Source: Rebecca billardiae RCC1528 (taxonomy: Eukaryota > Protista > Haptophyta). From it: a DNA stretch of 64,000 nucleotides. Below are positions 5,962 to 64,000 of the stretch, piece by piece. The notes beneath the pieces are model-generated. The model was not told where the DNA came from and made no database searches. It saw nothing but the letters and a program-made list of their open reading frames with translations. The stretch covers positions 1,922,001-1,986,000 of the forward strand of contig OZ251223.1 of the NCBI GenBank assembly GCA_965240325.2, given 5' to 3'. Every line of letters begins with the position of its first letter. Within the stretch, counting starts at the first letter, position 1. Position numbers and translations under genes: made by a program.

Positions 5962-7698
5962 TGACCGCGTTCCGCGGTCCTTTTCCGTAGAACGAACGTA
6001 GTTCAGGGCCCGCGGTGGCGGTGCACCCTCCGTCGCAGTCGTCCATTGACAGACCCGGAGTTGCATGCCCGTACAACTAGACTCTCCACCAGCGGCGCGC
6101 CGCCGCCCGCCGCGCCGCGGGCGGGCCCATCGCACTTCGCAGCCGCCGGCGCAGCGCCGATTGTGTACAGGCGGATGCGACGAGGCGTGATCGACGCATG
6201 AGCGCGACTCCACGTGCACGCCAGGCCACGCGAAGCTGACAGCCAGGGAGCACGGTGCGGGGCCGCGGATTCGTTCGGGCCGCCGTGCTGCTGACTGTGA
6301 CCGCTGTCCCGGGTCACCGCGCACCGGCAGCGCCAGGATAGTTAGATGATTTGCACTGGTCCGAGTAGGGTTCGACCAGCGCCTGCGCGACGGCCGACAG
6401 GCGGGCGCGAGGCGTGATCGACGCATGAGCGCAACTCTACGAGCACGCCAGGCCACGCGGAGCTGACAGCCCGAGGGACGGCACGCAGTGCCGAGGTTCG
6501 AGGGCACCGCAGTCACAGATCGTTCGCGCACGCCGCGCGTGCACGGGCGGACACACCTCGATCAGGCTCGGCACGCGTTGCAGAGGCACAGCCAGCTCTG
6601 GGGACGGCACGCACCACCGTCGCCCGCGCAGCTCGTCCTCCTCGTAGAGTACCGTTCAGTTCCGAGGCGTAGCCCTCGCTCAGAGTCGACCGTCGACGAT
6701 GGACTCGGATCGTCGGCGCTCCCCGGAAAGGCATGGCAAGGGCGGCGCGTGGTGAAGTCGAAGACTCAGAGATCGATCAGTCCGGCATCAGGCGCCGCTG
6801 CCCCCGAGCTTGCGAGAGCCCGAATACAGGGCGGCTGCCGCGGCGCGGCCGGGGCGCCCCGGGCGACGCGCGCGGCCGCGCGCAGGCATCGACACGGGGC
6901 GGCGGGGGCGCGCGGAGTGAGCGGGGGCACGAACGCGATGTCGACGGCAGTCGGGACCCGCCACAGCCGCGCGCTCCAGGCACAACTCGCCGCGCGCACC
7001 TGCCCATCGCCGTACTCACCCGTCGGTCGCTCGTGCGGCTCGCGACCCTCTCGCGGAGAGTGCGCAGCAACCAAGGTTTGGCTTTGAGCTCTCTGATCAA
7101 GAGTGCCTTGCGTGCCGGGTAGCTCTCTGATCAGTAGGTTACGACGCGGTGGATTCATTCTCCTGATGGCTCATTGATGAATACCATTTGTCGTCACGAA
7201 GCGGTGGATTCGTTCTCCTGATGGCTCCTTGATGAATACCATTTGTCAGATGGCGACGATCAGGTAACGAGTGGTAAAGAGTCCGGTCATACGCGACCCG
7301 CTTCCTCTGCAATCCCAGCTTTCGGCATACGCGGGTACTACGATACATTATGGCCCGCGGTGAAGATAAATACGATGAGAGTCGTTGCGGCGGCGAGGCC
7401 ATATTTATTTATTACTATGGTCGTCACACATGAACGAGAGGCTACCCACAATTACCCAGCCTGGCACACTTGGGCGTGGGTTTCGTTGATTCCTCTGTTC
7501 ACTATTCAAGACGGCGGCCGCGTCCTTTTTCGACGCTAATGCACCTGTAAGGGAGTCTCAAAATCGAAACTCGGTCTCCTCCAGCCCTAAAAAATCGCCC
7601 CCCGTCCCTTTTTTCTTGATCAAAGATCTTTTTGAAACGTGGTTCGGGCCCGCTGGTGCGGGCTCCACGCTGCGCGCTCCGCCCTGCACCGCGGGCCA
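5962..7698 (-). mobile_element. Non-autonomous Helitron2/Helentron-like element, copy 1
   Basis: Shares both termini with 11462-13186 and 56286-57675: TGGCCCGCGGTGCA at one end, and a subterminal inverted copy plus terminal hairpin GACCGCG-GAA-CGCGGTC at the other. Confidence 0.7.
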
Positions 7699-8223
7699 TT
7701 ATTATTTCTATCTAATCCGCGCCGCCGCGCACGCCGCGCGCGCCGCCAGCGCCTGTCTAGTGTCTGCGCCACGGGCACGGCACCAGTCCGAAGTGCCAAG
7801 TTTTAAGTTATTACGATTATTATTCGTGTGACGACCCGGACGGACCCGGACAGCCAAGTCACATATATCGACCGCGCCGACTGCCGACCGTCAGCGACCG
7901 TGCCCGTGATCGTGAGTCAGTCGGACCGTGATTATTACATCGCGCAGTATGTTGAGTATGTATGTAGTGCATCATATGCGCTAATAAATGCTGCTTCGGA
8001 TGCTATGATGATTGCTGTCGCCGTCGATTACTTGCTGATGACTGATGATGATGATTGATGATTGCTGATGATCGTCATCAGCTGATTGTATCAGCAGCAG
8101 CAATTATAATATTAACAGCGTCGCAGCAGGCGATAAGTAGCAGCGTCGTAATGAGCGGCGCTTGGCGGCCGAGTAGCGTACTGAGTAGTAGCGTAGCACT
8201 AGCAGTATAGCAGCGTAGTATAT

Positions 8224-9583: not shown

Positions 9584-10260
9584 AATCTCGCCTGCCTGAG
9601 CTGTGTGCGTCTCTTATTCTTAGTAAACTGTGGAGTCGATCTCGCCTGCCTGAGCTGTGTGCGTCTCTTATAATTCTTAGTACAGTTTACTAAGAAGAAG
9701 AGACGCACACAGCTCAGGCAGGCGAGATTGACGCCCGCCAACTGTCACCGCCCATGAAGCCGTCGCCGATGGTAGCGCCGCCGGAAAAAATCGTTCAGCC
9801 GTCCGCCTGCGAGGCCTGGATGAGGGCTGCGGCCGCCTCGCGGCGCGCCAGCGCCCGTCGTCCTCGCCCCACCGTCGTCCACAAAACGTCGTCGTCCGAA
9901 CTCGCCGACTGGGCGCCGATGCGACAGCGCGCCGACAGGATGAGGATGTCACAGTAGGGAATGTAGAGCCCCAATGTCGGTTGGGGAAGGTGTGTATCAA
10001 GCGGCATGACTGGGGTAGCTTATCACACAGAAGTGAGAAGGCCTGGCCCTCAGGTGATATGTGCCCCAGTGTGGCGTGTCGGCCTCAAAGCCGGCGGCAG
10101 GGTTCTGACTTCGGAGCAGGGTTTGCTGGCGCATCAGCTGCGTGGGCCGGGGCGTCCGGCTGTTTGCGTTTGCGGGCCGGGGCCGGCACTGATGCCACCC
10201 CGCCGCGCATGCTGGCCTGCATGTACGGCTGCTGCCCAAGGTCAGCCCCGGCATAAACTG
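9584..10260. mobile_element. Nest of Tc1/mariner-like TIR fragments plus a partial element
   Basis: Two reverse TIR pieces (9584-9631, 9639-9682) abut a forward TA|CAGTTTACTAAGAA.. end at 9683. 9683-9900 is homologous to 45100-45352. Confidence 0.65.
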
Positions 10261-10316
10261 TAATCACGCCTTTACCAAGTGTGCACGTGAAAACATACAG
10301 TCAAGGGCCCTTGATA

Positions 10317-10662
10317 CAGTTTACTAAGAATAAGAGACGCACACAGCTCAGGCAGGCGAGACTGACGCCCACCAACTGTCACCGCCCATGAAGCCGTCGC
10401 CGATGGTAGCGCCGCCGGAAGATTCGTTCAGCCAAGGACATCCTTGGTTCAGCCGTCCGCCTGCGAGGCCTGGATGAGTAGCAGCGCTATGTTTTTAACG
10501 TGCGCACACTTTCAACTTGGTAAAGGCGTGATTGATACAGTTTACTATTAAAAGTTTACAGCAGTGAACTGATGTGGCGACGCGCCTTCATGGGCGGTGA
10601 CAGTTGGCGGGCGTCAATCTCGCCTACCTGAGCTGTGTGCGTCTCTTATTCTTAGTAGACTG
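10317..10662. mobile_element. MITE with ~75-bp TIRs, TA target-site duplication (Tc1/mariner-like)
   Basis: TA|CAGTTTACTAAGAATAAGAGACGCACACAGCTCAGG... and ...CCTGAGCTGTGTGCGTCTCTTATTCTTAGTAGACTG|TA. Confidence 0.75.
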
Positions 10663-11461
10663 TATTCCCAGCAGTATTCTTGGCCGGAGTCACCGGAGTA
10701 CTGTACCGGCTGGCTGGCGGCTGCATTCCCTCGCCGTGTTGACGACGGTGGCAGCAGTGATCGTGCAGGACACGCGCGCAGCCTGGGCGATGGTTCCAAA
10801 CCCTGCCTACCGAGTACCGTCGTCACATGAGGCGTGCACGACGGAGAGCGCCTCGCTGTGGAAGATCATGACCGCTACGTGCGCTTACGTCACTGGCTGG
10901 TGCTTGGTAGGGAACATTATTCTGAGCATCCAATATAACCACCATATCGATCGCGCGACGAGCTCGCTCGGTTACACTGGCTGGACGCCGTGCCTGGACG
11001 CGATTGGCATCAACAAGCTGCCGATGCTACACTTCGCCCGAGCATTCGGCATCCCGGCGCCGCGAGGGCGCGAGTCTCACCTAGCATACATGCATAGTAC
11101 CTGTGCACGCAAGATCCGTGCGCGAGCTGATGCTTGTTTGTCATCCAATTCACCATGTAATATATATATTAACGACTAGACTACAAGTTAAGTAGTAGTA
11201 CATAGTCTACTACTAGTCTTACTCAGACGGGTAACTGACTTTCACATTCGGTCATTCAATTCGTCGCGGCATTCCGCGCCCGGACAGCATTTATAATCAT
11301 CACTACGACTATCTCTACTATTATTGTAATTTAAAAGCTGCGCCTTTTCACTATAAATCACGCGGTGGCAAGTAGGCCAAGTAGTGCGGTTACTATTATT
11401 TATAACTTCTTCAGCTTAGCTTTATAATTATATATATAATTATTTTAAATGTATATAATTA

Positions 11462-13186
11462 TGGCCCGCGGTGCAGGGCGGAGCGCGCAGCGTGGAGCCC
11501 GCTCCGTGGACACTACTGTAACCACGTTTCAAAAAGATCTTTGATCAAAGAAAAAAGGGACGGGGGACGATTTTCAGGGCTGGAGGAGACCGAATTTCGA
11601 ATTTTGAGACCGCAAAGAGACATCCATTAGCGAGAAATGGGCACGTCCGGCTTGTTTGTATTCAGAGGAATCAACGAAACCCACGTCCAAGTGTGCGAGG
11701 GTGGGTAATTGTGGGTAGACTGTGACCATAGTAAATAAGCACATGACCATAGTAAACAAGCCTCGCTGCCGCTACTAGGCGCGCGCCAGACACGGAGCGC
11801 GCGCACCAGTTGCGTCGCGCTGCGCACGGCCACGGAGCATGCGCGACGAGATCGCGGCGGGGGCGGCGAGATCGCGGCGGGGGCGACGGGCAACAACCTG
11901 CCCGCGGGCGCGTTCGTCACTCGAGGAGCAGCGCGCAAGGGCGAGCCGAGTCCGGAGCACGCGAGCTCGTCGCTCGCCGCCCGGAGCAGAGCGCGCCGCT
12001 GCGAGCGAGCGGCGCGGCACAGCTGATGAGCCCGAAGCGCCCGGAGCTCGCGCGGCTGACGGGCGAGCTCGAGCACGCGAGCTCGCGCCTCGACGCTGAG
12101 CGCGAGCTCCTCCTCAACTCGGTCGACGGCGGCGCGGAGGTGCAGCAGCGTGAGGACGAGCAGGAGCATCAGTGAAACGCGCGCCGGTTCCGGGTCGCAG
12201 CGGTGCCCAGCTGCCTGCCACGCGAGCGGCGGCCACGTGGCGCGAGGAGCTGCGTGGGGAAATCGCCGCGCGCGTCGACGCGGCGATCACCGGGCTGCAG
12301 GCCTCGGCAATCGACGCGGTGCGCACCCTCGCCGCCAGCCGCGACGACTCCGCCGTCGAGCTGCAGCAGCTGCGCGCGCAGATGCCAGAAGTGCCGATGG
12401 GCGGCGGCGTATCAGCAGGCTGACGTGCACGAGCACGTGACACGCGGAGGCGCTAGGCGCCAAGCTGGCGAAGTGCGGCGCCGAGCTCGACGAGCTGAGC
12501 GACGCGGCAACGGACGCGCTGGGCGCCCGCGCCGCCATCGTCGCGGCGCCCTCCAGCAGCTCGAGCAGCTGTGGATAGTTGGCCGTCGAGGCGACCGCGG
12601 GTGTGACTCACAGTGTGAGTGAGCCGGCGCGCGGCTCAGCCTGCCGCTGGCAGCCGCCGTCTTCGAGGCCGACGCGGCGGAGGAGGCGGCGGGCGAGCAC
12701 GGCGGCGCGGTGGAGCAGGCGCGCACGCGCGGCGGCAGGCGCGACGCGCCGCTCGCCTCGTTCCACCGCCCCGAGCTCCGCTCGGTCGGTCTCGGTGCGA
12801 GGCTGCGCAGCCGGCAGGCCGGGGCCAGCAGTGGCGCGCGCTCTCGCTCTGCCGGCACGAGCGACCAGCGGCCCGTCGTCGAGCGCATGGCGCAGGGCGA
12901 GTACCTCAAGCAGGTGCGCCCGCTCGCGCGCACGCGCCGGCTCGCGCCGCGCCAGCGCCTCTCGCCCTGCCTGCGCGCGCGCGCCGGCCGCTAGTCCCCG
13001 CGGCGGCCCGCGGACCCGCGGCGACAGTCCTCGGCCCGCCGGCCCGGTGGGCGGCAGTGACTGAGTTGGCGGTGGCAGCTCAGGCGAACTGTTACACATG
13101 TCAGACTGAGACAGCAGCCGACGGAGGGTGCGCCGCGGGCCCCGAACTACGTTCGTTCTACGGAAAAAGACCGCGGAACGCGGTCA
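11462..13186 (+). mobile_element. Non-autonomous Helitron2/Helentron-like element, copy 2, with coding-like cargo
   Basis: Starts A|TGGCCCGCGGTGCA. Ends TGCGCCGCGGGCC..(~30 nt)..GACCGCGGAACGCGGTCA|T. The 5' ~260 bp matches copy 1 and the 3' ~700 bp matches copy 3. Confidence 0.72.
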
Positions 13187-45099: not shown

Positions 45100-45352
45100 C
45101 AGTTGACGAAGAATAAGAGACGCACACAGAGTCTGGGCGGGCGAGATTGACGCCCGCCAACTGTCACCGCCCATGAACTACAGTATGAAGCCGTCGCTGA
45201 TGGCCGTGATGCCTAGCGCCGTCGGCGTCGGAAGAGTCGTTCAGCCGTCCGCCTGCGAGGCCCGGATGAGGGCTGCGGCCGCCTCGCGGCGCGCCAGCGC
45301 CCGTCGTCCTCGCCCCACCGTCGTCCACAAACTAAGCTACGTCGTCGTCCGA
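45100..45352 (+). mobile_element. Left end of the Tc1/mariner-like MITE family
   Basis: TA|CAGTTGACGAAGAATAAGAGACGCAC...; colinear with 9683-9900. Confidence 0.7.
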
Positions 45353-56285: not shown

Positions 56286-57671
56286 TGACCGCGTTCCGCG
56301 GTCCTTCCGTAGAACCAACGTAGTTAGGGGCCCGCGGTGCACCCTCCGTCGGCTGCTGTCTCAGTCTGGTCAACATGGCGGGCCGATGAGGACTGTCGCC
56401 GCGGGCCCGCGCGAAGAAGTACGGACGGCGGCCGGGGCAGCGGCGCGCGCGCGCAGGGCGAGCCTGCCTTGAGGTGCTCGCGCTGCGCCACGCGCTCGAC
56501 GACGGGCCGCTGGTCGCTCAGCCGGCGCGCCTCGTGCCGGCAGAGCGAGAGCGCGCACCACTCTGCTGGCCCCACCCCCAGCGGCCCCAGCCTGCGCTCA
56601 CGGCGCTGCGCAGCCGCGCACCGAGAGGCGAGACCGAGCGGAGCTCGGGGTGGAACGAGGCGAGCGGCGGGTCGCGCCTGCCGCCGCGCGTGCGCGCCTG
56701 CTCCACCGCGCCACCGTGCTCGCCCGCCGCCTCCTCCGCCGCGTCGGCCTCGAAGCCACGGCGGCGGCCAGCCAGCCTCCGACCGAGGCGGAGCCCGAGC
56801 CCGTGCGTGCTCACTCACCCGGCGCGGTGGCGCCCTCGAGTCGACGGCCGTCTACTCCACAGCTGGCTGCTCGAGCTGCTGCACGGGGCGTCGCGACGAG
56901 GGCGCCGCGCGCGCCCAGCGCGTCCGTCGCCGCGTCGCGCAGCGCGTCGAGCTCGGCGCCGCGCTTCGCCAGCTCGGCGCCCAGCGCCTCCGTGCGCACT
57001 CGTGCTCATTCGATTGTCGTCATCGCGCTCGTCGGCTCCGTGGCGAGCCCGCGGGGCGGACGAGCGGACTACTGCGCGCCGCAGCAGGAGCAGCGCGCGG
57101 CGCGCAGCGCTCCGCGCGCAGCAGGGCCGTCTCCTCATCCACCGAGTGCACGGCCTGCGCGGCGGCGACGGCGGCGCGCGCCGCCGCGGGGGGACGCAAG
57201 CGCTGCGGGCCGAGATGAGTCCGGCCGCCGAGCCGCGGTGGCGAGCGGCGTCGGCTTGCGCGCCGGGAAAATAATGCAAACCGGCAAACAGCGCGCTCGG
57301 TACGCCGACATGCAGTTTGAAACAGTCGTAGTATATGACCCATGCACATGCACTTATTTGTCAAAACAATACGGCCCTTGGACCGGCGACCAAGTTTTCA
57401 ATAGCGTCGATGACACGATGACTAAACTTTACTGACAAAGTGACGGCCAGCGGCCTTCGATCTTTCTTATTACTCACGTCCGGGCGCGCCTATTTCGTCA
57501 ACCGCATCTTGCGATAGAGAGCTATCTACCCCTCGAAAAAGCGAAAACTCACCCTCCAACAACCGTAAAAATCGTCCCCCGTCCCCTTTTCTTTGATCAA
57601 AAGATCTTTTTGACAACGTAGTGAGGGCCCCCGGCGGGGCTCCACGCTACGCGCTCCGCCCTGCACCGCGG

Positions 57672-57675
<4 letters not shown>
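56286..57675 (-). mobile_element. Non-autonomous Helitron2/Helentron-like element, copy 3
   Basis: Same termini as copies 1 and 2; perfect 13-bp asymmetric IR GGCCCGCGGTGCA at 56329-56341 and 57662-57674; flanked by (TA)n. Confidence 0.72.
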
Positions 57676-57726
<51 letters not shown>

Positions 57727-57748: not shown

Positions 57749-58823
57749 GTGTCCTCCTGCATGAAGAGCGATGCGACGCCATTGAGTATGGACGAACATC
57801 ACCCACAGTCTGCGTGATGTGCATGCGAGGGCAGGTATTGCAGCATATATGCGAGCATGCAGCAAATGCCGATACACACCATGCCGAAATGGTGATGTAT
57901 AAATATATACTTGCGCGTGGTGGGGATTTGTCCCTGGCTGAACGGGAAGAGCGACTGAGCCGACGGTGCCAAAGCTGCGCGCAGACTGCGCCAGCGACGC
58001 AGCGTGTGGCAGCAAGGTCCCTGGCTCAGGCAAGCGCAGCACTCACAGGCCTGACGACAAGGTTGTCAACCACAACGGAGGCTGCAGGGGCGGATGGCGG
58101 GTTTCGCAACGAGCACAAGCAAAGAACGCAGAGGAGATGGCGGGACCTCGGGCTTTGCAGATGCGCAGGCCGAAGCAGGGGCTGCCGAGAGGCGAGAGAT
58201 GAGCAGCTCGGCCCGAAAGGTCGTGTAACCGATGATCGAGCGAGCTCTGCTAGGTGGGCTGCTTGATATGAACTTTGGTAAGTTGCCACGCCGACTTAAG
58301 ATGACCTTGTATATGATCTCGAGCGCCGGATAGTGGAGAGGAGCGGGTACTTACAGAGGAGCCAGTGTGGTTGGCCGATATGAAAGGACCAGCGCCCGCC
58401 ATGATGATGATAAAGGATAGCTCCGTGGCCGATGAGCTCCGGAAATCGACTGCAACTACCTGCAGGACCTAGAAGACGATGGCGGCCCTTGTCCACCAGC
58501 TGCGCGTTGCCTTTCCAGCCTCCCGACACACTCGGTTATAACTCCGTTATAACGCCACGTGTCCTCCTGCATGAAGAGCGACGCGACGCCATTGAGTATG
58601 GACGAACATCACCCACAGTCTGCGTGATGTGCATGCGAGGGCAGGTATTGCAGCATATATGCGAGCATGCAGCAAATGCCGATACACACCATGCCGAAAT
58701 GGTGATGTATAAATATATACTTGCGCGTGGTGGGGATTTGTCCCTGGCTGAACGGGAAGAGCGACTGAGCCGACGGTGCCAAAGCTGCGCGCAGACTGCG
58801 CCAGCGTGTGGCAGCAAGGTCCC
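57749..58823. repeat. Pair of ~265-bp direct repeats (57749-58021, 58559-58823) around a ~540-bp spacer
   Basis: Near-identical copies differing by one substitution and an 8-nt duplication. Confidence 0.93.
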
Positions 58824-59032: not shown

Positions 59033-59278
59033 CCTACAAAGGTCTGGCCCGCAAGGGCTGTGCCTACAAAGGCTGTGCCTACAAAGGTCACTGGTGTGCC
59101 TACAAAGGTCACGGATGTGCCTACAAAGGCTGTGCCTACAAAGGTCACTGGTGTGCCTACAAAGGTCACTGGTGTGGCCTACAAAGGTCACGGGTGTGCC
59201 TACAAAGGCTGTGCCTACAAAGGTCACTGGTATGCCTGCAAAGGCTGTGCCCACAAAGGCTGGTGGCCTACAAAGGCT
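59033..59278. repeat. Minisatellite of 15- and 21-bp units built on GCCTACAAAGG
   Basis: About 13 cores; units GTGCCTACAAAGGCT and GTGCCTACAAAGGTCACTGGT. Confidence 0.95.
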
Positions 59279-59492: not shown

Positions 59493-62400
59493 TCAGCGAC
59501 AAGCGCCCACCGCGGGCGGCGCGCCACGGACTCGCGAGCGCCGCCACACCGGCCCAGGGTTGCTGGCCTCGCCCACGCGCTCACCGCGCAGCGGCATGGG
59601 CGGATCGGCAGCGAGGACGAGCGGACGCGAGAGCAGCGCGACGAGCTCGTCAAGCAGCGCCTGCACGCGCACGACGGGCACTGCGAGCCACGTCGGGCGT
59701 AGGCCGAGCTGGGCGCACAGGCGCTCGAGGACGCCAAACTCGCCGCGGCTAGCTGCGTCCGCCAACGGGTTCATCTCGGAGAGGAGGAACTCCGAGTCGG
59801 CCAGCTCTGCGATCGTTCGCCATTCAGGGGCGTCGAGCAGCGCGAGGTGCGCGTGCTGCAGCAGCGGGGAGTGCGCGGACAGGTTGTGGAGGATGTGGTC
59901 GGTGACAGAGCTGTCGGTGCGGAGCCGGATGACGGCGCCTGCAATGCGCGGCGCGAAGATCAGCACGTTGGCGAACAGCGCGACGAACTCGAGCGCGACC
60001 ACCGGCAGAGCGAGGTCCGACGCGCGCAAGGGCAGGCTCCAGCAGAGCCCGTGGGCGTAGCCCCCCAGCGACGGCACGCGCGCGCCATCCTTGGCGGCGT
60101 CCGAGAAGAGCACGAACGCAGGCGGCGCCGCGGCCGGCAGGTGCCGGCGGGTCGAGGGGCCCGGCAGCGCGTTGGAGAAGAGCACGCCCGCGGTGGAGCG
60201 CAGGAGCTTGGCCCAGCGCGCGCACGCGGCGCGGAGCGTGGCGGTGATGGGCACCGGCCGCGCTGGGTGGCGTCCGAGCTCGCCGAAGTGCGTGTACAGG
60301 CCGTAGAAGAACGTGCGGTTCGCCGGCGTGAGCGGGCGGAAGTGCTCGAGCAGACCGACGAGCGCGCGAAAGGTAGAGAAGGGTACCGGCCTGCTCGCCA
60401 GCAAGTCGTCCAGGATGACGAGAGCGCGCAGGATCTTGGCCGGCGGCACCGCGAGGACGCCAGCGCAGACGACAAAGTCGCAGCCGAGCCAGAGCGCTGA
60501 CTGGCCGATTTGGCGCTTCTCGGGGATGGCCATGAGCAGGCCGAGGCTGGTGGTGACGCGGTGCCAGACGGAGAGAAAGCGCACCGTTCTGTCCACGCCG
60601 ACGATGGAGAAGTTGGTGTCGTCCGTGAAGCAGTCGCCGCTGAAGAGGCGCAGCTGGGGGCGCCGCGTGGTCACCGCGAGCGCACGGCGCTGCTCGATCC
60701 AGCTGCGCACAGCAGGGGGCGTCAGCGGGTCAGCGAGCATCGCCTCGAAGCGCGGCAGCTCCTCGTCGTCGAAGCACCGCGAGGCGATCTGCACGACGGT
60801 CGTGCTTAGGCGCTGCGCGATGTTACTGCTGGGCGAGAGCCCAAAGCCGAGGCGCGACTCAGAGACGACGACGTGGCCGCCGGCGGCAACGCCCTCGCCG
60901 TCCGGCCGCAGCCAGAGGAGGCAGACGTTTGGCAGCTCGGCCGTTGCGACGCCGAGGTGGTTGAAGAAGTCGGCCACGTCGTCTGTGAGCGTGAGTATTG
61001 GCTCGCCAAACACGGCGGCGGCGTCGAGCAGGATCGCGTTGTCGTGCATCTTGCCGCCGACCGTGGGCTTGGCTTCGCGCGGCCACTTGCGCGGCGGCGC
61101 GCGCGGCAGGGTGGGCGTAAGACCCGCTGCGATCATCCGCTCGGCCGCGGCGGACGGGGCAGCCGCTGCTGGGCGGGGCACGTCGTGCCAGCCCGCGGCC
61201 GCGTCAGCGACCTCGTCGTGGAGACCGACAGCGACGTTGAGCGGGATGACAGGCACGCCAGCTGTGTCGACGAGCGCGCGGCGGGGCGCGCCGCCATCGG
61301 TCGTGCGGCGGTGCCGGTCCGGCTCGAGCTTGCGCGGCGTGGACCCCTGCGGGCTGAGCCGGCACGGGAGGAACGGGAAGTCGTCCCAGAAGCTGTACCA
61401 GCCGCGCGCCGCGAGGCGGAGGAGCTCCTTGTGCACGGAGGAGGCGGCCGCGCCGAGGGTGGTGAGGTGCGGCAGCAGCACGAGCTGGAGAGCCACATCG
61501 GCCTTGAACCGCACACCGTGGCGCACAAAGGAGAGCAGCTCGCGGTCGGGGAAGTCGGGACCGACGGCAGCTTCGAGGGCGTCCGGCATGAGCGTGCGCG
61601 ACTCGAGCGGCGCCGAGAAGTCGAGCGGCAAGTACACGCCGTCCACCTTGCTCCGAAGGTCCCAGACGATGCCGCGGGCCTCCGGGTGGAAGAGGTCCTG
61701 GCCGATGGCGAGCGGCGCGTTGGTGCGCCGGGCGGCTGAGCCGAGCGAGAGGTACGCGCGCAGGTCGGCCTCCTCGCGGCGGCGCCAGCCCGCGACGAGC
61801 TCGAGCGCCGCGGGTAAGAGGATGTCAGCAACCGACCGCGGGCGGTACGAAGTCGCACGCTGCCGCCGCGGCGTCGGCACGTTGGTGTGAGGAGGGTCAA
61901 AGCGCGCCGACGTGGAGTCAAAGGGGAGCGCGGCGAGCGACCCGAGCGGCACGCGCATCGAGTGACCCTGCAGGGCGACAGGGATGCTGGAGCGGTCGGT
62001 GCGCACGCGATCGCCCCAGCCGGTGAGCGACTGGCCTTCCGTGGCCGGCAAGGAGGCGGCGCGTACAGCGATCATCGCCCGCAGAGCGGCGTCGGTCGCC
62101 TCGGCCGCGCGCGCCCCTTGCGCCCACGAGCGCTGCCTGGCGGCCGCCAGCGCCAGATCGCGCGCGGCCGAGGAACCGGCCGGACCCGTCGCGGCGAGAG
62201 GAGGCATGCGACGAGGGAGGACGTCCACGAGCGCTGCACACGCAGCGGCGGCCGGCTCGTACAAGTCGGAGCCGGCGAACGCGCCCAAAGGGAACCACTC
62301 GCAGCCAGCAGCGAGCATCGGCGAGCGCGGCGGGCGCGTTCGGCTGGGAAGGGCCACGACGTGCGCCTCGCCGCCAAAGCGGCACTCGGCGCCGCGCAGG

Positions 62401-63269
62401 CGTGTGGCGTAGATGCCCGTCAGCGGCGGGCCACCCGTGAGCGCGCGTGCGACGAGAGACTCGGCCCGTGGGCACGCCTCTGAGCGGGGGCACGACGACG
62501 TGGATGAGCCCAGAAAGGAAGTCGGCGCGCCGCCGGGCGCGCGTCGACCGGCAAGGATGAGCGGCGCGTCGGGATCGTCGAGAGCGACGACGAGCGCCAG
62601 CAGCGAGGTGCTGGAGTCCGTGGATGCACTGAGCGTGCGTGTCGGCTCGACCCACGCCAGCCGCGATGGCGGCATGCCACCTCCGCTGCGCGCCGCAGGC
62701 GCGCGCAGCGGCGGCGGCGCACCGGCGCCGGCAGATGTCGCCGCCTGGCGAGCCCGCGCGTCTCCGCCGACGCGAGGCGGCGGCAGCCGCGAGCGGTCGA
62801 GCAGCGCTGAGGCAGCCACGCCCGGCGCCAGCGAAGCGAGAGGCGTGGAGCCGCCCCGCCCCGCCGGCGCGAGCGGCGGCGGCGGCGCATCGCAGCCGAC
62901 AGCCGGCGCGGTTGGGCGCGCGCGCTTGGCGCCGTCGACGCGGGGCGGCTGCAGCCGCGCGCGGGCAAGCAGCACGGCAGCACCCACGCCCGCCGTCACC
63001 GCCGCGACTGGCGAGGAGGCGGCAGATGACGAGTCGCCTGCGCGCGCAGCCTCAGCACGCAGCGACCGCGGTGAGGCAGCGGCGGCCAGCCCACCCGGCA
63101 AGGGAGCAGCAGGTGGTACCGCCGGCAGGGGCACCTCGGCGCTCATCGCCGCGCGCGCGGCAGCGCCCGCGGGCCCGGCGGCGACCGCCGCCGCGGACGC
63201 CGGCGAGAGAAGCGGGCAGCAATCCGCCGGCGGGCGCCCACTTAGTGGCCCGTCGGCAAGCCAAAACCC
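59493..63269 (-). CDS. DIRS/Ngaro-type pol ORF (reverse transcriptase + RNase H), probably reached by -1 frameshift
   Basis: RT motifs TDDVADFFNHL, RLGFGLSPSSNIAQR, FTDD, PEK, WLG. DIRS-type RNase H motifs LFSDAAK..LGG, LEFVAL, RTDSSV, NPLADAASRG. Confidence 0.88.
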   Translation of the reverse strand, partial: GFWLADGPLSGRPPADCCPLLSPASAAAVAAGPAGAAARAAMSAEVPLPAVPPAAPLPGGLAAAASPRSLRAEAARAGDSSSAASSPVAAVTAGVGAAVLLARARLQPPRVDGAKRARPTAPAVGCDAPPPPLAPAGRGGSTPLASLAPGVAASALLDRSRLPPPRVGGDARARQAATSAGAGAPPPLRAPAARSGGGMPPSRLAWVEPTRTLSASTDSSTSLLALVVALDDPDAPLILAGRRAPGGAPTSFLGSSTSSCPRSEACPRAESLVARALTGGPPLTGIYATRLRGAECRFGGEAHVVALPSRTRPPRSPMLAAGCEWFPLGAFAGSDLYEPAAAACAALVDVLPRRMPPLAATGPAGSSAARDLALAAARQRSWAQGARAAEATDAALRAMIAVRAASLPATEGQSLTGWGDRVRTDRSSIPVALQGHSMRVPLGSLAALPFDSTSARFDPPHTNVPTPRRQRATSYRPRSVADILLPAALELVAGWRRREEADLRAYLSLGSAARRTNAPLAIGQDLFHPEARGIVWDLRSKVDGVYLPLDFSAPLESRTLMPDALEAAVGPDFPDRELLSFVRHGVRFKADVALQLVLLPHLTTLGAAASSVHKELLRLAARGWYSFWDDFPFLPCRLSPQGSTPRKLEPDRHRRTTDGGAPRRALVDTAGVPVIPLNVAVGLHDEVADAAAGWHDVPRPAAAAPSAAAERMIAAGLTPTLPRAPPRKWPREAKPTVGGKMHDNAILLDAAAVFGEPILTLTDDVADFFNHLGVATAELPNVCLLWLRPDGEGVAAGGHVVVSESRLGFGLSPSSNIAQRLSTTVVQIASRCFDDEELPRFEAMLADPLTPPAVRSWIEQRRALAVTTRRPQLRLFSGDCFTDDTNFSIVGVDRTVRFLSVWHRVTTSLGLLMAIPEKRQIGQSALWLGCDFVVCAGVLAVPPAKILRALVILDDLLASRPVPFSTFRALVGLLEHFRPLTPANRTFFYGLYTHFGELGRHPARPVPITATLRAACARWAKLLRSTAGVLFSNALPGPSTRRHLPAAAPPAFVLFSDAAKDGARVPSLGGYAHGLCWSLPLRASDLALPVVALEFVALFANVLIFAPRIAGAVIRLRTDSSVTDHILHNLSAHSPLLQHAHLALLDAPEWRTIAELADSEFLLSEMNPLADAASRGEFGVLERLCAQLGLRPTWLAVPVVRVQALLDELVALLSRPLVLAADPPMPLRGERVGEASNPGPVWRRSRVRGAPPAVGACR
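63226..63269 (-). promoter_or_regulatory. -1 programmed ribosomal frameshift signal
   Basis: G GGU UUU in the ORF1 frame, 5-nt spacer, then stem-loop GCCGACGGGC-CACUAAGUG-GGC-GCCCGCCGGC. Confidence 0.75.
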
Positions 63270-64000
63270 GAGGGCCAAGCGTCGAGAGCATGCTGGGCGA
63301 GGTCGACGGCATCGAGCGAGTGCGCGCCGGCGCCGATCGCGCCGTGGCCGGGTTGGCCCGAACACGGGCAGCGCCGGATGGCCACGTCCGCGAGTGAGGG
63401 CTTGGCCCTGCCGTCGGCGCGCAGCTTCGGGAACCGCGTGGCCACGACCGGCAGGCACGGGTCGACGTGCATCACACTCACGTACGCCGCCGAGAAGGAG
63501 CTCAGGCGGAAGAGGCCCAAGTTGTCCGAGAGCAGCCCGATGCCGAAGCAGTCGTGCGTCTCGGAGACGACATAGCCGACGGGGGGGCCGAAAGGCTTGG
63601 TGTTGAGGATGGTCACCTGCACGTCCGAGCCGTAGCTCGGCGCAGCGGCCGCAGGCCCGCGCGCCAACTGGCGCTGCTTCTTGCTCGGCGGGGGTTGCAG
63701 CTGCGCGCGAGCACGCCCTGGAGCGGTGGGCGACGGCTGCGGTTGCCCGCGCAAGGGGTTGGCCGGGGTGCTCGGGCCGGGGCCTGCCGACTGGCCGGCG
63801 CCCTGGCTGGCGCGGAGAGCGAGCATCCGGTCGACAAACGCCGCGCTCTGGTTCCAGGTGATCATGGTCGCCTGCGTGGAGCGACAGGCCTCGCGGATGG
63901 TGGCCAGCACGACCGACGACGGGTCGAGGAACGGCAGCTCAGGAATGCGCGCGAGCGGGTTGGGGTCGGCGAGGGCGACGCCAAAGCGCGTCTCGAGGTC
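63242..64000 (-). CDS. ORF1 (gag-like) of the retroelement, 5' part outside the window
   Basis: Open frame continuing to the window edge, overlapping pol in a different frame; C-terminal Cys/His cluster (DPC..RRCPCSGQPGH). Confidence 0.6.
   Translation of the reverse strand, partial: DLETRFGVALADPNPLARIPELPFLDPSSVVLATIREACRSTQATMITWNQSAAFVDRMLALRASQGAGQSAGPGPSTPANPLRGQPQPSPTAPGRARAQLQPPPSKKQRQLARGPAAAAPSYGSDVQVTILNTKPFGPPVGYVVSETHDCFGIGLLSDNLGLFRLSSFSAAYVSVMHVDPCLPVVATRFPKLRADGRAKPSLADVAIRRCPCSGQPGHGAIGAGAHSLDAVDLAQHALDAWPSGFGLPTGH

Follow-up and report, generated by a model that had tools for sequence, protein, structure and literature searches.

At the junction of two open reading frames (ORFs) of a Ngaro-like retroelement in the haptophyte Rebecca billardiae RCC1528, the slippery heptamer G GGU UUU, a 5-nt spacer and a predicted RNA pseudoknot probably constitute a programmed -1 frameshift signal that would give a Gag-Pol fusion. 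The element lies on the minus strand of the window, by which is meant the whole 64,000-nt stretch analysed (contig OZ251223.1, positions 1,922,001 to 1,986,000 of the forward strand). An original prediction, made from the letters of the stretch, had proposed that ORF1 and a reverse transcriptase (RT)-RNase H frame are joined by frameshifting ahead of a capped hairpin. Fusion by frameshifting stands as the best reading, and it is better supported than it was then, because the stimulator is probably a pseudoknot and the homology of ORF1 to its relatives ends at the heptamer. The junction comprises the following features.

63242..64000, minus strand: C-terminal 252 codons of ORF1, Gag-like; start beyond the window, stop TAA at 63244-63242
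63320..63460, minus strand: Cys/His knuckle-like motif P-C-x-P ... R-C-x7-H-x7-H near the ORF1 end, presumed to bind zinc
63263..63269, minus strand: slippery heptamer G GGU UUU in ORF1 phase, from sequence and frame analysis
63258..63262, minus strand: 5-nt spacer GGCUU, of which U63258 could add a U.G pair to stem 1
63226..63257, minus strand: stem 1 (63257-63248 pairing with 63235-63226), loop 1 CACU (63247-63244) and the 5' arm of stem 2
63210..63243, minus strand: predicted stem 2 of an H-type pseudoknot (63243-63236 with 63217-63210), 8 bp with one G.U
59493..63263, minus strand: pol frame, -1 relative to ORF1, 1256 codons from the slip site to the TGA at 59495-59493

The letters of the slip region were re-read and agree with the earlier account, the minus strand being TCG GGT TTT GGC TTG CCG ACG GGC CAC TAA at 63271-63242. 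The heptamer (63269-63263) stands in the X XXY YYZ phase of ORF1, six sense codons ahead of the TAA, and the RT-RNase H ORF is indeed in the -1 frame, as part of a long ORF (59493-63938) that is open across the site and reads G-F-W-L-A-D there. The in-frame Met that had been pointed out downstream is the first ATG of the pol frame, at 63146. Along the 4.6 kb of the element's coding strand between 59400 and 64000, G GGU UUU at this site is the only canonical heptamer. In conceptual translation, a simultaneous slip yields P-S-G-F, then W-L-A-D-G, with 1256 pol codons that pass in order through an Ala/Pro-rich linker, a pre-RT domain, RT and RNase H. The distance from the heptamer to stem 1 is 5 nt, or 4 nt if the U.G pair of U63258 forms. 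Two other lines of thought were abandoned: the 700-nt open -1 frame 5' of the ORF1 stop was dropped as evidence, since T is rare at the third positions of ORF1, and stop-codon read-through was rejected, as it would keep the ORF1 frame and terminate at the TGA at 63145.

At the rate found across the whole window (43 in 128 kb), an in-phase canonical heptamer would fall by chance within 25 codons past the knuckle in 0.8% of cases, and in a GC-rich context (6 in 76,086 positions) in 0.2%. The figure amounts to about 2% at the rate of four related ORF1 tails (3 in 3,686 codons) and to 4.2% when the peptide is synonymously recoded with the codon usage of the element. The TTTT of the heptamer is the sole A or T run of at least four among the 27 runs in the element. 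Stops in the ORF1 frame occupy 11 of the 1256 codons along pol, and TAA only two of them, one being ORF1's own stop; read in the pol frame, that stop uses the rare codons CTA (2 of 120 Leu) and AGT (1 of 55 Ser). As for GT donors, the interval between knuckle and ORF1 stop holds just a weak GTC and the heptamer's own GTT.

ORF1 is inferred to be Gag. Its third-position GC stays at 0.87-0.94 down to about 63400, and it aligns with ORF1 of four related loci at 21-27% identity, the knuckle giving a pairwise E of 5e-4 and its residues R210, C211, H219 and H227 being invariant in all five aligned rows. The alignment spans the knuckle and one more helix that ends in W-P-S, just before the heptamer. 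No Pfam family was found on ORF1; a comparison with proteins of 442-2000 aa gave no match, nor did a phmmer search of 1.84 billion representatives, and the Atlas search gave no usable one.

Downstream of the heptamer, the stem described earlier is present at 63257-63248/63235-63226 with nine G-C pairs and one A.C mismatch, although alone it is not exceptionally stable. Folding with RNAfold, which had been suggested as a check, gives this hairpin as the minimum-energy structure when the 40-50 nt that follow the heptamer are folded, with a pair probability of 0.96 for 50 nt, but in longer contexts the pair probability is 0.6 or about 0. Compared with shuffles at eight lengths between 35 and 120 nt, its stability has z values from -0.67 to +0.54, with z about -0.6 for the hairpin alone. 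Of the 45-nt windows of the element, 19% fold as stably; hairpin energy was therefore rejected as evidence for a signal, the shuffles being equally stable. The CAC-UAA-GUG cap does place the ORF1 stop inside the loop, but it is worth merely 1.3 kcal/mol (-16.7 vs -15.4) and was set aside as an important feature, as it also blocks a better partner of the loop. That partner is evident in the sequence: the hairpin loop AAGUGGGC (63243-63236) can form 8 bp with GCCCGCUU (63217-63210), which takes the signal as far as 63210 as a predicted pseudoknot.

In the predicted pseudoknot, stem 1 has 10-11 positions, loop 1 has 4 nt, loop 2 has 0 nt and loop 3 has 7-8 nt (8 nt as 63225-63218), while stem 2 includes two bases of the ORF1 stop. 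Both helices appear in RNAfold as alternative hairpins, which is the expected outcome for a pseudoknot in a program unable to model one. The long stem 1 and 8-nt loop 3 are similar to those of the minimal pseudoknot of infectious bronchitis virus. Scored by the best summed stacking energy after a 4-9 nt spacer, with loop penalties left out, the site reaches -38.8. Under tight loop limits, chosen once the structure had been seen, 13 of 5000 shuffles attain this value, as do 4 of 1500 GC-matched positions; another shuffle run gave 0 of 1000, and the site ranks first of the 43 heptamers in the window. These models suggest that the frameshift stimulator is probably the pseudoknot rather than the capped hairpin. 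An Rfam scan of the signal region returned no family at E up to 5.

Pseudoknot formation and ribosome slippage can be inferred to proceed as follows. A ribosome would pause at the pseudoknot with GGU in the P site and UUU in the A site, occupied by the Gly and Phe tRNAs. In a minority of passages, the tRNAs would re-pair one base back on GGG UUU and translation would go on as W-L-A-D-G for 1256 codons to give Gag-Pol, while in the majority the structure would be unwound and the ribosome would stop six codons on, at the UAA inside the structure, to give Gag alone.

The remainder of the element was annotated on the basis of a structural model of pol, built on its relatives, and of repeat structure.

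62683..63021, minus strand: imperfect tandem duplication of 168 nt (75%) in the pol linker, with the frame kept
59760..62045, minus strand: RT at about 62045-60174 and RNase H at about 60125-59760, from the structural model
59550..59573, minus strand: putative 2A/StopGo-like motif G-E-A-S-N-P-G-P after RNase H, where relatives run on into the recombinase
57749..58823, minus strand: 3' direct repeats at 58823-58559 and 58021-57749, 96.7% identical over 273 columns and 537 nt apart

Pol folds like an RT of the long terminal repeat (LTR) class and of retroviruses followed by RNase H, according to a model with a predicted local distance difference test (pLDDT) score of 87.5. It matches retroviral and Ty3 RTs, including that of Moloney murine leukaemia virus (E 5e-12). 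Fold comparison gave Z 16.0 and a root-mean-square deviation (rmsd) of 5.1 over 328 aligned residues for RT, and Z 13.9 and rmsd 2.6 over 113 for RNase H. At the sequence level, pol has no Pfam match, and no meaningful match to its profile was present among PDB sequences. Codon periodicity is low in the linker, and no conserved domain is evident from the slip site to about 62600.

The canonical 2A/StopGo core is D(V/I)ExNPGP, as given in bioRxiv 10.64898/2026.09.24.754024; in the motif of the window E-x-N-P-G-P is present and R-V-G occupies the canonical G/H-D-V/I position. Among relatives, such a motif is possibly a route to a free recombinase from a polyprotein, as judged from sequence. In 22 relatives the end of RNase H could be detected by pattern and enough sequence follows it for a recombinase; among these, E-A-S-N-P-G-P occurs in two (P0009 and P0027) and a D/E-G-P motif in nine, often as F-S-x4-G-D-G-P and in some cases maybe by chance, with neither in 11. 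T-A-S-N-P-G-P in P0015 and D-A-D-H-P-G-P in P0032 were spotted by eye.

Eighteen codons past the 2A-like motif, the pol frame of the window meets a TGA, followed by a minisatellite and the pair of 97% identical direct repeats. The frame is open for about 74 further codons (59493-59270, minus strand) with W-R-R repeats as before the stop, and this continuation suggests that the stop is secondary and that the element was cut further down. The near-identical database protein P0001, from another assembly, ends at the same TGA. The minisatellite (59033-59278) has units of 15-21 nt around GCCTACAAAGG and lies at the expected place of the recombinase. No recombinase was found in the window: the C-terminal 560 aa of 14 relatives matched just the RNase H and 2A regions there, while in a control the C-terminal parts of all 14 matched the related loci L003 and L004. 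From these sequences, the window copy is likely a deleted member of a recombinase-bearing family.

The 3' repeats are likely the B-A-B end of an element with split direct repeats, the 5' A copy of which would fall beyond the window. Hallmarks of DIRS1-like elements were not found in this copy: the 2A-like motif and a stop come within about 60 codons of RNase H, no adenine-methyltransferase domain is seen there, and the 3' repeats are direct, not inverted. The DIRS/Ngaro assignment made at first is supported, the element being Ngaro-like by its RT-RNase H, its B-A-B-like 3' repeats and its relatives, but this copy has no recombinase. The sequence fits a Ngaro-like element (A-ORFs-B-A-B, no adenine methylase) that lost its recombinase. 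The neighbouring host genes are eukaryotic and alga-like, and include a kinesin, a triose-phosphate transporter and an ATP/ADP transporter.

Database searches with pol returned 39 relatives, of which P0001 is near-identical and the others share 28-45% identity; the only named sources among them are Pavlovales sp. and Prymnesium sp., which points to a haptophyte-like algal host. The relatives carry RT, RNase H and recombinase in one frame, PF00589 being found on 7 of the 39 and PF00145 on 3. P0002, P0006, P0032 and others carry a C5 cytosine methyltransferase domain ahead of RT and in its frame, like the dinoflagellate DIRS-Dnmt elements; the window element has none. Related elements came from eukaryotic contaminant contigs in two bacterial genome bins (G001 and G002); the contaminant retrotransposon contigs are L003, L004, L005, L012, L017 and L018, and G001 has at least five.

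A quick tree, with support from the Shimodaira-Hasegawa-like approximate likelihood ratio test (SH-aLRT) only, with P0036, P0038 and P0039 left out for short overlap and with an unusual letter make-up in the window row, joins the window pol to the Pavlovales elements P0031/P0035 with support 87 on a long branch. All loci with a gag/pol junction fall in a distant clade, on another branch of this tree from the window. There, a predicted intron of 291-336 nt, G|GTACGC ... C-rich ACAG|G, puts ORF1 and pol in frame when removed in all three complete junctions, as listed here from the sequence.

L005, 4944-5278: predicted phase-1 intron, 335 nt
L012, 5009-5344: predicted phase-1 intron, 336 nt
L017, 4464-4754, reverse strand: predicted phase-1 intron, 291 nt

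Of the other loci, L003 shows just the acceptor and L018 just a donor-like site. In L017 the ORF1-pol frame is open (1937 aa) even with the intron in place. Since ORF1 and pol can be joined in all three distant junctions, a Gag-Pol fusion is plausible in the family, and from these sequences it looks like the family's design.

Closer relatives were also sought elsewhere. A metagenome scan for close DNA relatives gave 2 loci out of 65 candidates, neither of them close; a distant broken RT-RNase H piece lacking ORF1 (L001) and a chance match to a bacterial response-regulator region (L002) were discarded. Viral contigs contained no close relative among 169, 2 and 20 candidates, the heptamer-plus-stem pattern occurred at 17 loci in viral sequences, none encoding a relative, and a plasmid search for close relatives gave no match.

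Several observations weigh against the frameshift reading. No in-phase heptamer is found near the knuckle at any of the four loci of the distant clade, where ORF1 continues for 740-1265 codons beyond the knuckle; by motif, this extension includes putative OTU-like and methyltransferase-like regions, in which Pfam found no family. Likewise, 10 of the 11 Gag matches have the knuckle and run 121-887 residues past it. Frameshifting does not extend to the whole family, in which splicing has to be reckoned a real alternative. The signal is a candidate seen in this copy, which is defective, having no recombinase, so its sequence need not be under selection. The pseudoknot score is a sum of stacking energies with no loop penalties, and the tight limits were chosen after the structure; with loose limits, 151 of 2000 shuffles attain -38.8, as do 106 of 1500 GC-matched positions, and the site ranks second of the 43 heptamers. 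Within the GC-rich linker of the element, nine other positions match this score (12 of 1475 when the site's own three are counted). The pseudoknot is a 0.3-7.5% event, independent of the heptamer. Finally, the ATG at 63146 is in the pol frame and has a purine at -3.

Three other explanations of the junction were considered. The family may have a single gag-pol ORF, with a base in or close to the G/T run missing from this copy or from its assembly; the heptamer would then be a homopolymer slip, and the structure would result from the 77-82% GC. Homopolymers are frequent sites of indels, L017 runs from gag to pol in one stop-free frame of 1937 aa, other damage is seen in the copy, which lacks the recombinase and has a TGA 18 codons past the 2A-like motif, and the pseudoknot is an event of about 7% under loose limits. 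Such a break, however, would have fallen on the sole T run of 27, at the end of the Gag homology and 5 nt before the pseudoknot, with a rare TAA behind it, and no further break interrupts the 1256 codons of pol. Of three listed sequencing runs, X1 holds 41% of the sequence words, and no RNA run is listed as holding them; its six listed contig pieces within the ORFs (151-608 nt) match the window with no gaps or differing letters, although none spans the slip site (the nearest covers 63290-63440) and X1 may be the source of the window. Loss of a base is accordingly regarded as unlikely. It is quite unlikely that pol is spliced to ORF1, in the manner predicted in the related clade, and that the heptamer is incidental or a back-up. 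This explanation would draw on the donor and acceptor shared by the predicted introns of L005, L012 and L017, on the low codon periodicity of the linker, and on sites of phase 1 in the window, among them a weak GC donor at 63327 and CAG acceptors at 63038, 63008, 62807 and 62480. Yet the intron clade sits on another branch of the tree and has its intron at least 740 codons past the knuckle, no GTACGC donor was found past the knuckle in a scan of the window, the strong donor-like sites (63485 and 63481) precede the knuckle, and use of the GC site at 63327 would remove the last His of the knuckle.

Alternatively, pol might be translated as a separate protein that starts at the ATG at 63146 (or at the one at 62675), either through reinitiation once ORF1 has terminated or on a shorter transcript. 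The ATG at 63146 lies 96 nt past the stop with G at -3, P0001 was called from the ATG at 62675, and the stretch from the slip site to about 62600 has no evident conserved domain. This view is held to be very unlikely: reinitiation after a long ORF is usually inefficient, the start chosen by a gene caller is no proof of initiation, and the heptamer and pseudoknot would be left unexplained. A programmed -1 frameshift at G GGU UUU is the reading retained.

Three further repeat groups were observed in the window. Copies of a dispersed repeat, each some 160 nt long and with about 80% identity, occur at 57537-57706, 11430-11721 and 7439-7715, the first copy lying just past the 3' repeat of the element and a TA microsatellite. 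An inverted duplication, coding-like, pairs 12445-13165 with 56305-56992 at a distance of 43 kb, with 91-98% identity over pieces of 52-107 nt. A short dispersed repeat resembling a miniature inverted-repeat transposable element (MITE) is found at 9584-10664 and 45118-45331 as direct and inverted copies of 46-111 nt with 83-100% identity.

Among known systems, the element resembles Ngaro-like tyrosine-recombinase (YR) elements of the order DIRS in having ORF1 followed by RT-RNase H, a recombinase downstream in its relatives and a B-A-B-like 3' repeat. PMC3783388 and PMC3266345 describe A-ORFs-B-A-B repeats and no adenine methylase in Ngaro-like elements, and in fungal Ngaro the recombinase may share the RT frame (PMC3783388). 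It differs from them in a signal placed at the gag/pol junction, with a defined heptamer and predicted pseudoknot, in an RT too divergent for sequence searches of Pfam and PDB, in the 2A-like motif after RNase H, and in lacking a recombinase. With the -1 frameshift signals of retroviruses, coronaviruses and animal LTR retrotransposons it shares an X XXY YYZ heptamer, a spacer, a downstream structure, and gag followed by pol in the -1 frame, but it has no evident protease or DDE integrase. G_GGU_UUU is named among the most shift-prone heptamers in PMC5009743, and the 5-nt spacer is within the range of 5-9 nt to the structure given in PMC7618472. SymbioDIRS-Dnmt3 of dinoflagellates (PMC5890265) is similar in that its RT is missed by Pfam and its organisation is A-coding-B-A-B, and PF00145 occurs in 3 of the 39 relatives of the window pol; there, in contrast, the recombinase is in a separate ORF, and the window element has no C5 methylase domain.

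In the original prediction, frameshifting was not recognised as a described expression mode for YR retrotransposons. No description of a gag-pol signal was found: the available parts of PMC8547959, PMC6681497, PMC5890265, PMC7192593 and bioRxiv 2022.06.16.496473 contain none for DIRS/Ngaro elements, and the word frameshift is absent from the main text of PMC5890265. More generally, in the literature found on DIRS/Ngaro/YR retrotransposons there is no description of a gag-pol frameshift, a pseudoknot or a 2A-like motif, although a gag-pol shift may have been put forward earlier, in Poulter and Butler 2015 or in the original Ngaro paper. For the Ngaro RT/recombinase overlap, however, programmed frameshifting was called probable by Poulter and Butler 2015, as quoted in a passage of PMC13003380. 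The novelty is therefore less than was first held, because frameshifting had already been suggested for Ngaro and the distant clade lacks the signal.

A broader scheme for algal YR retrotransposons can be put forward only tentatively, and is rather doubtful as a whole. One RNA would be translated with a pseudoknot-driven -1 frameshift that sets the ratio of Gag to Gag-Pol, a 2A-like StopGo motif (or its G-D-G-P variant) would free the recombinase, and a sister clade would have swapped the frameshift for a spliced intron. In the literature covered, the mode of expression of overlapping ORFs in the order DIRS is given as a suggestion. The signal described here is a compact 60-nt cassette that predicts compensatory changes in stem 2. 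If it is active, pseudoknot-driven gag-pol frameshifting would extend from retroviruses and LTR elements to a tyrosine-recombinase lineage, and, taken together with the intron clade, one family would switch between frameshifting and splicing for the joining of Gag and Pol.

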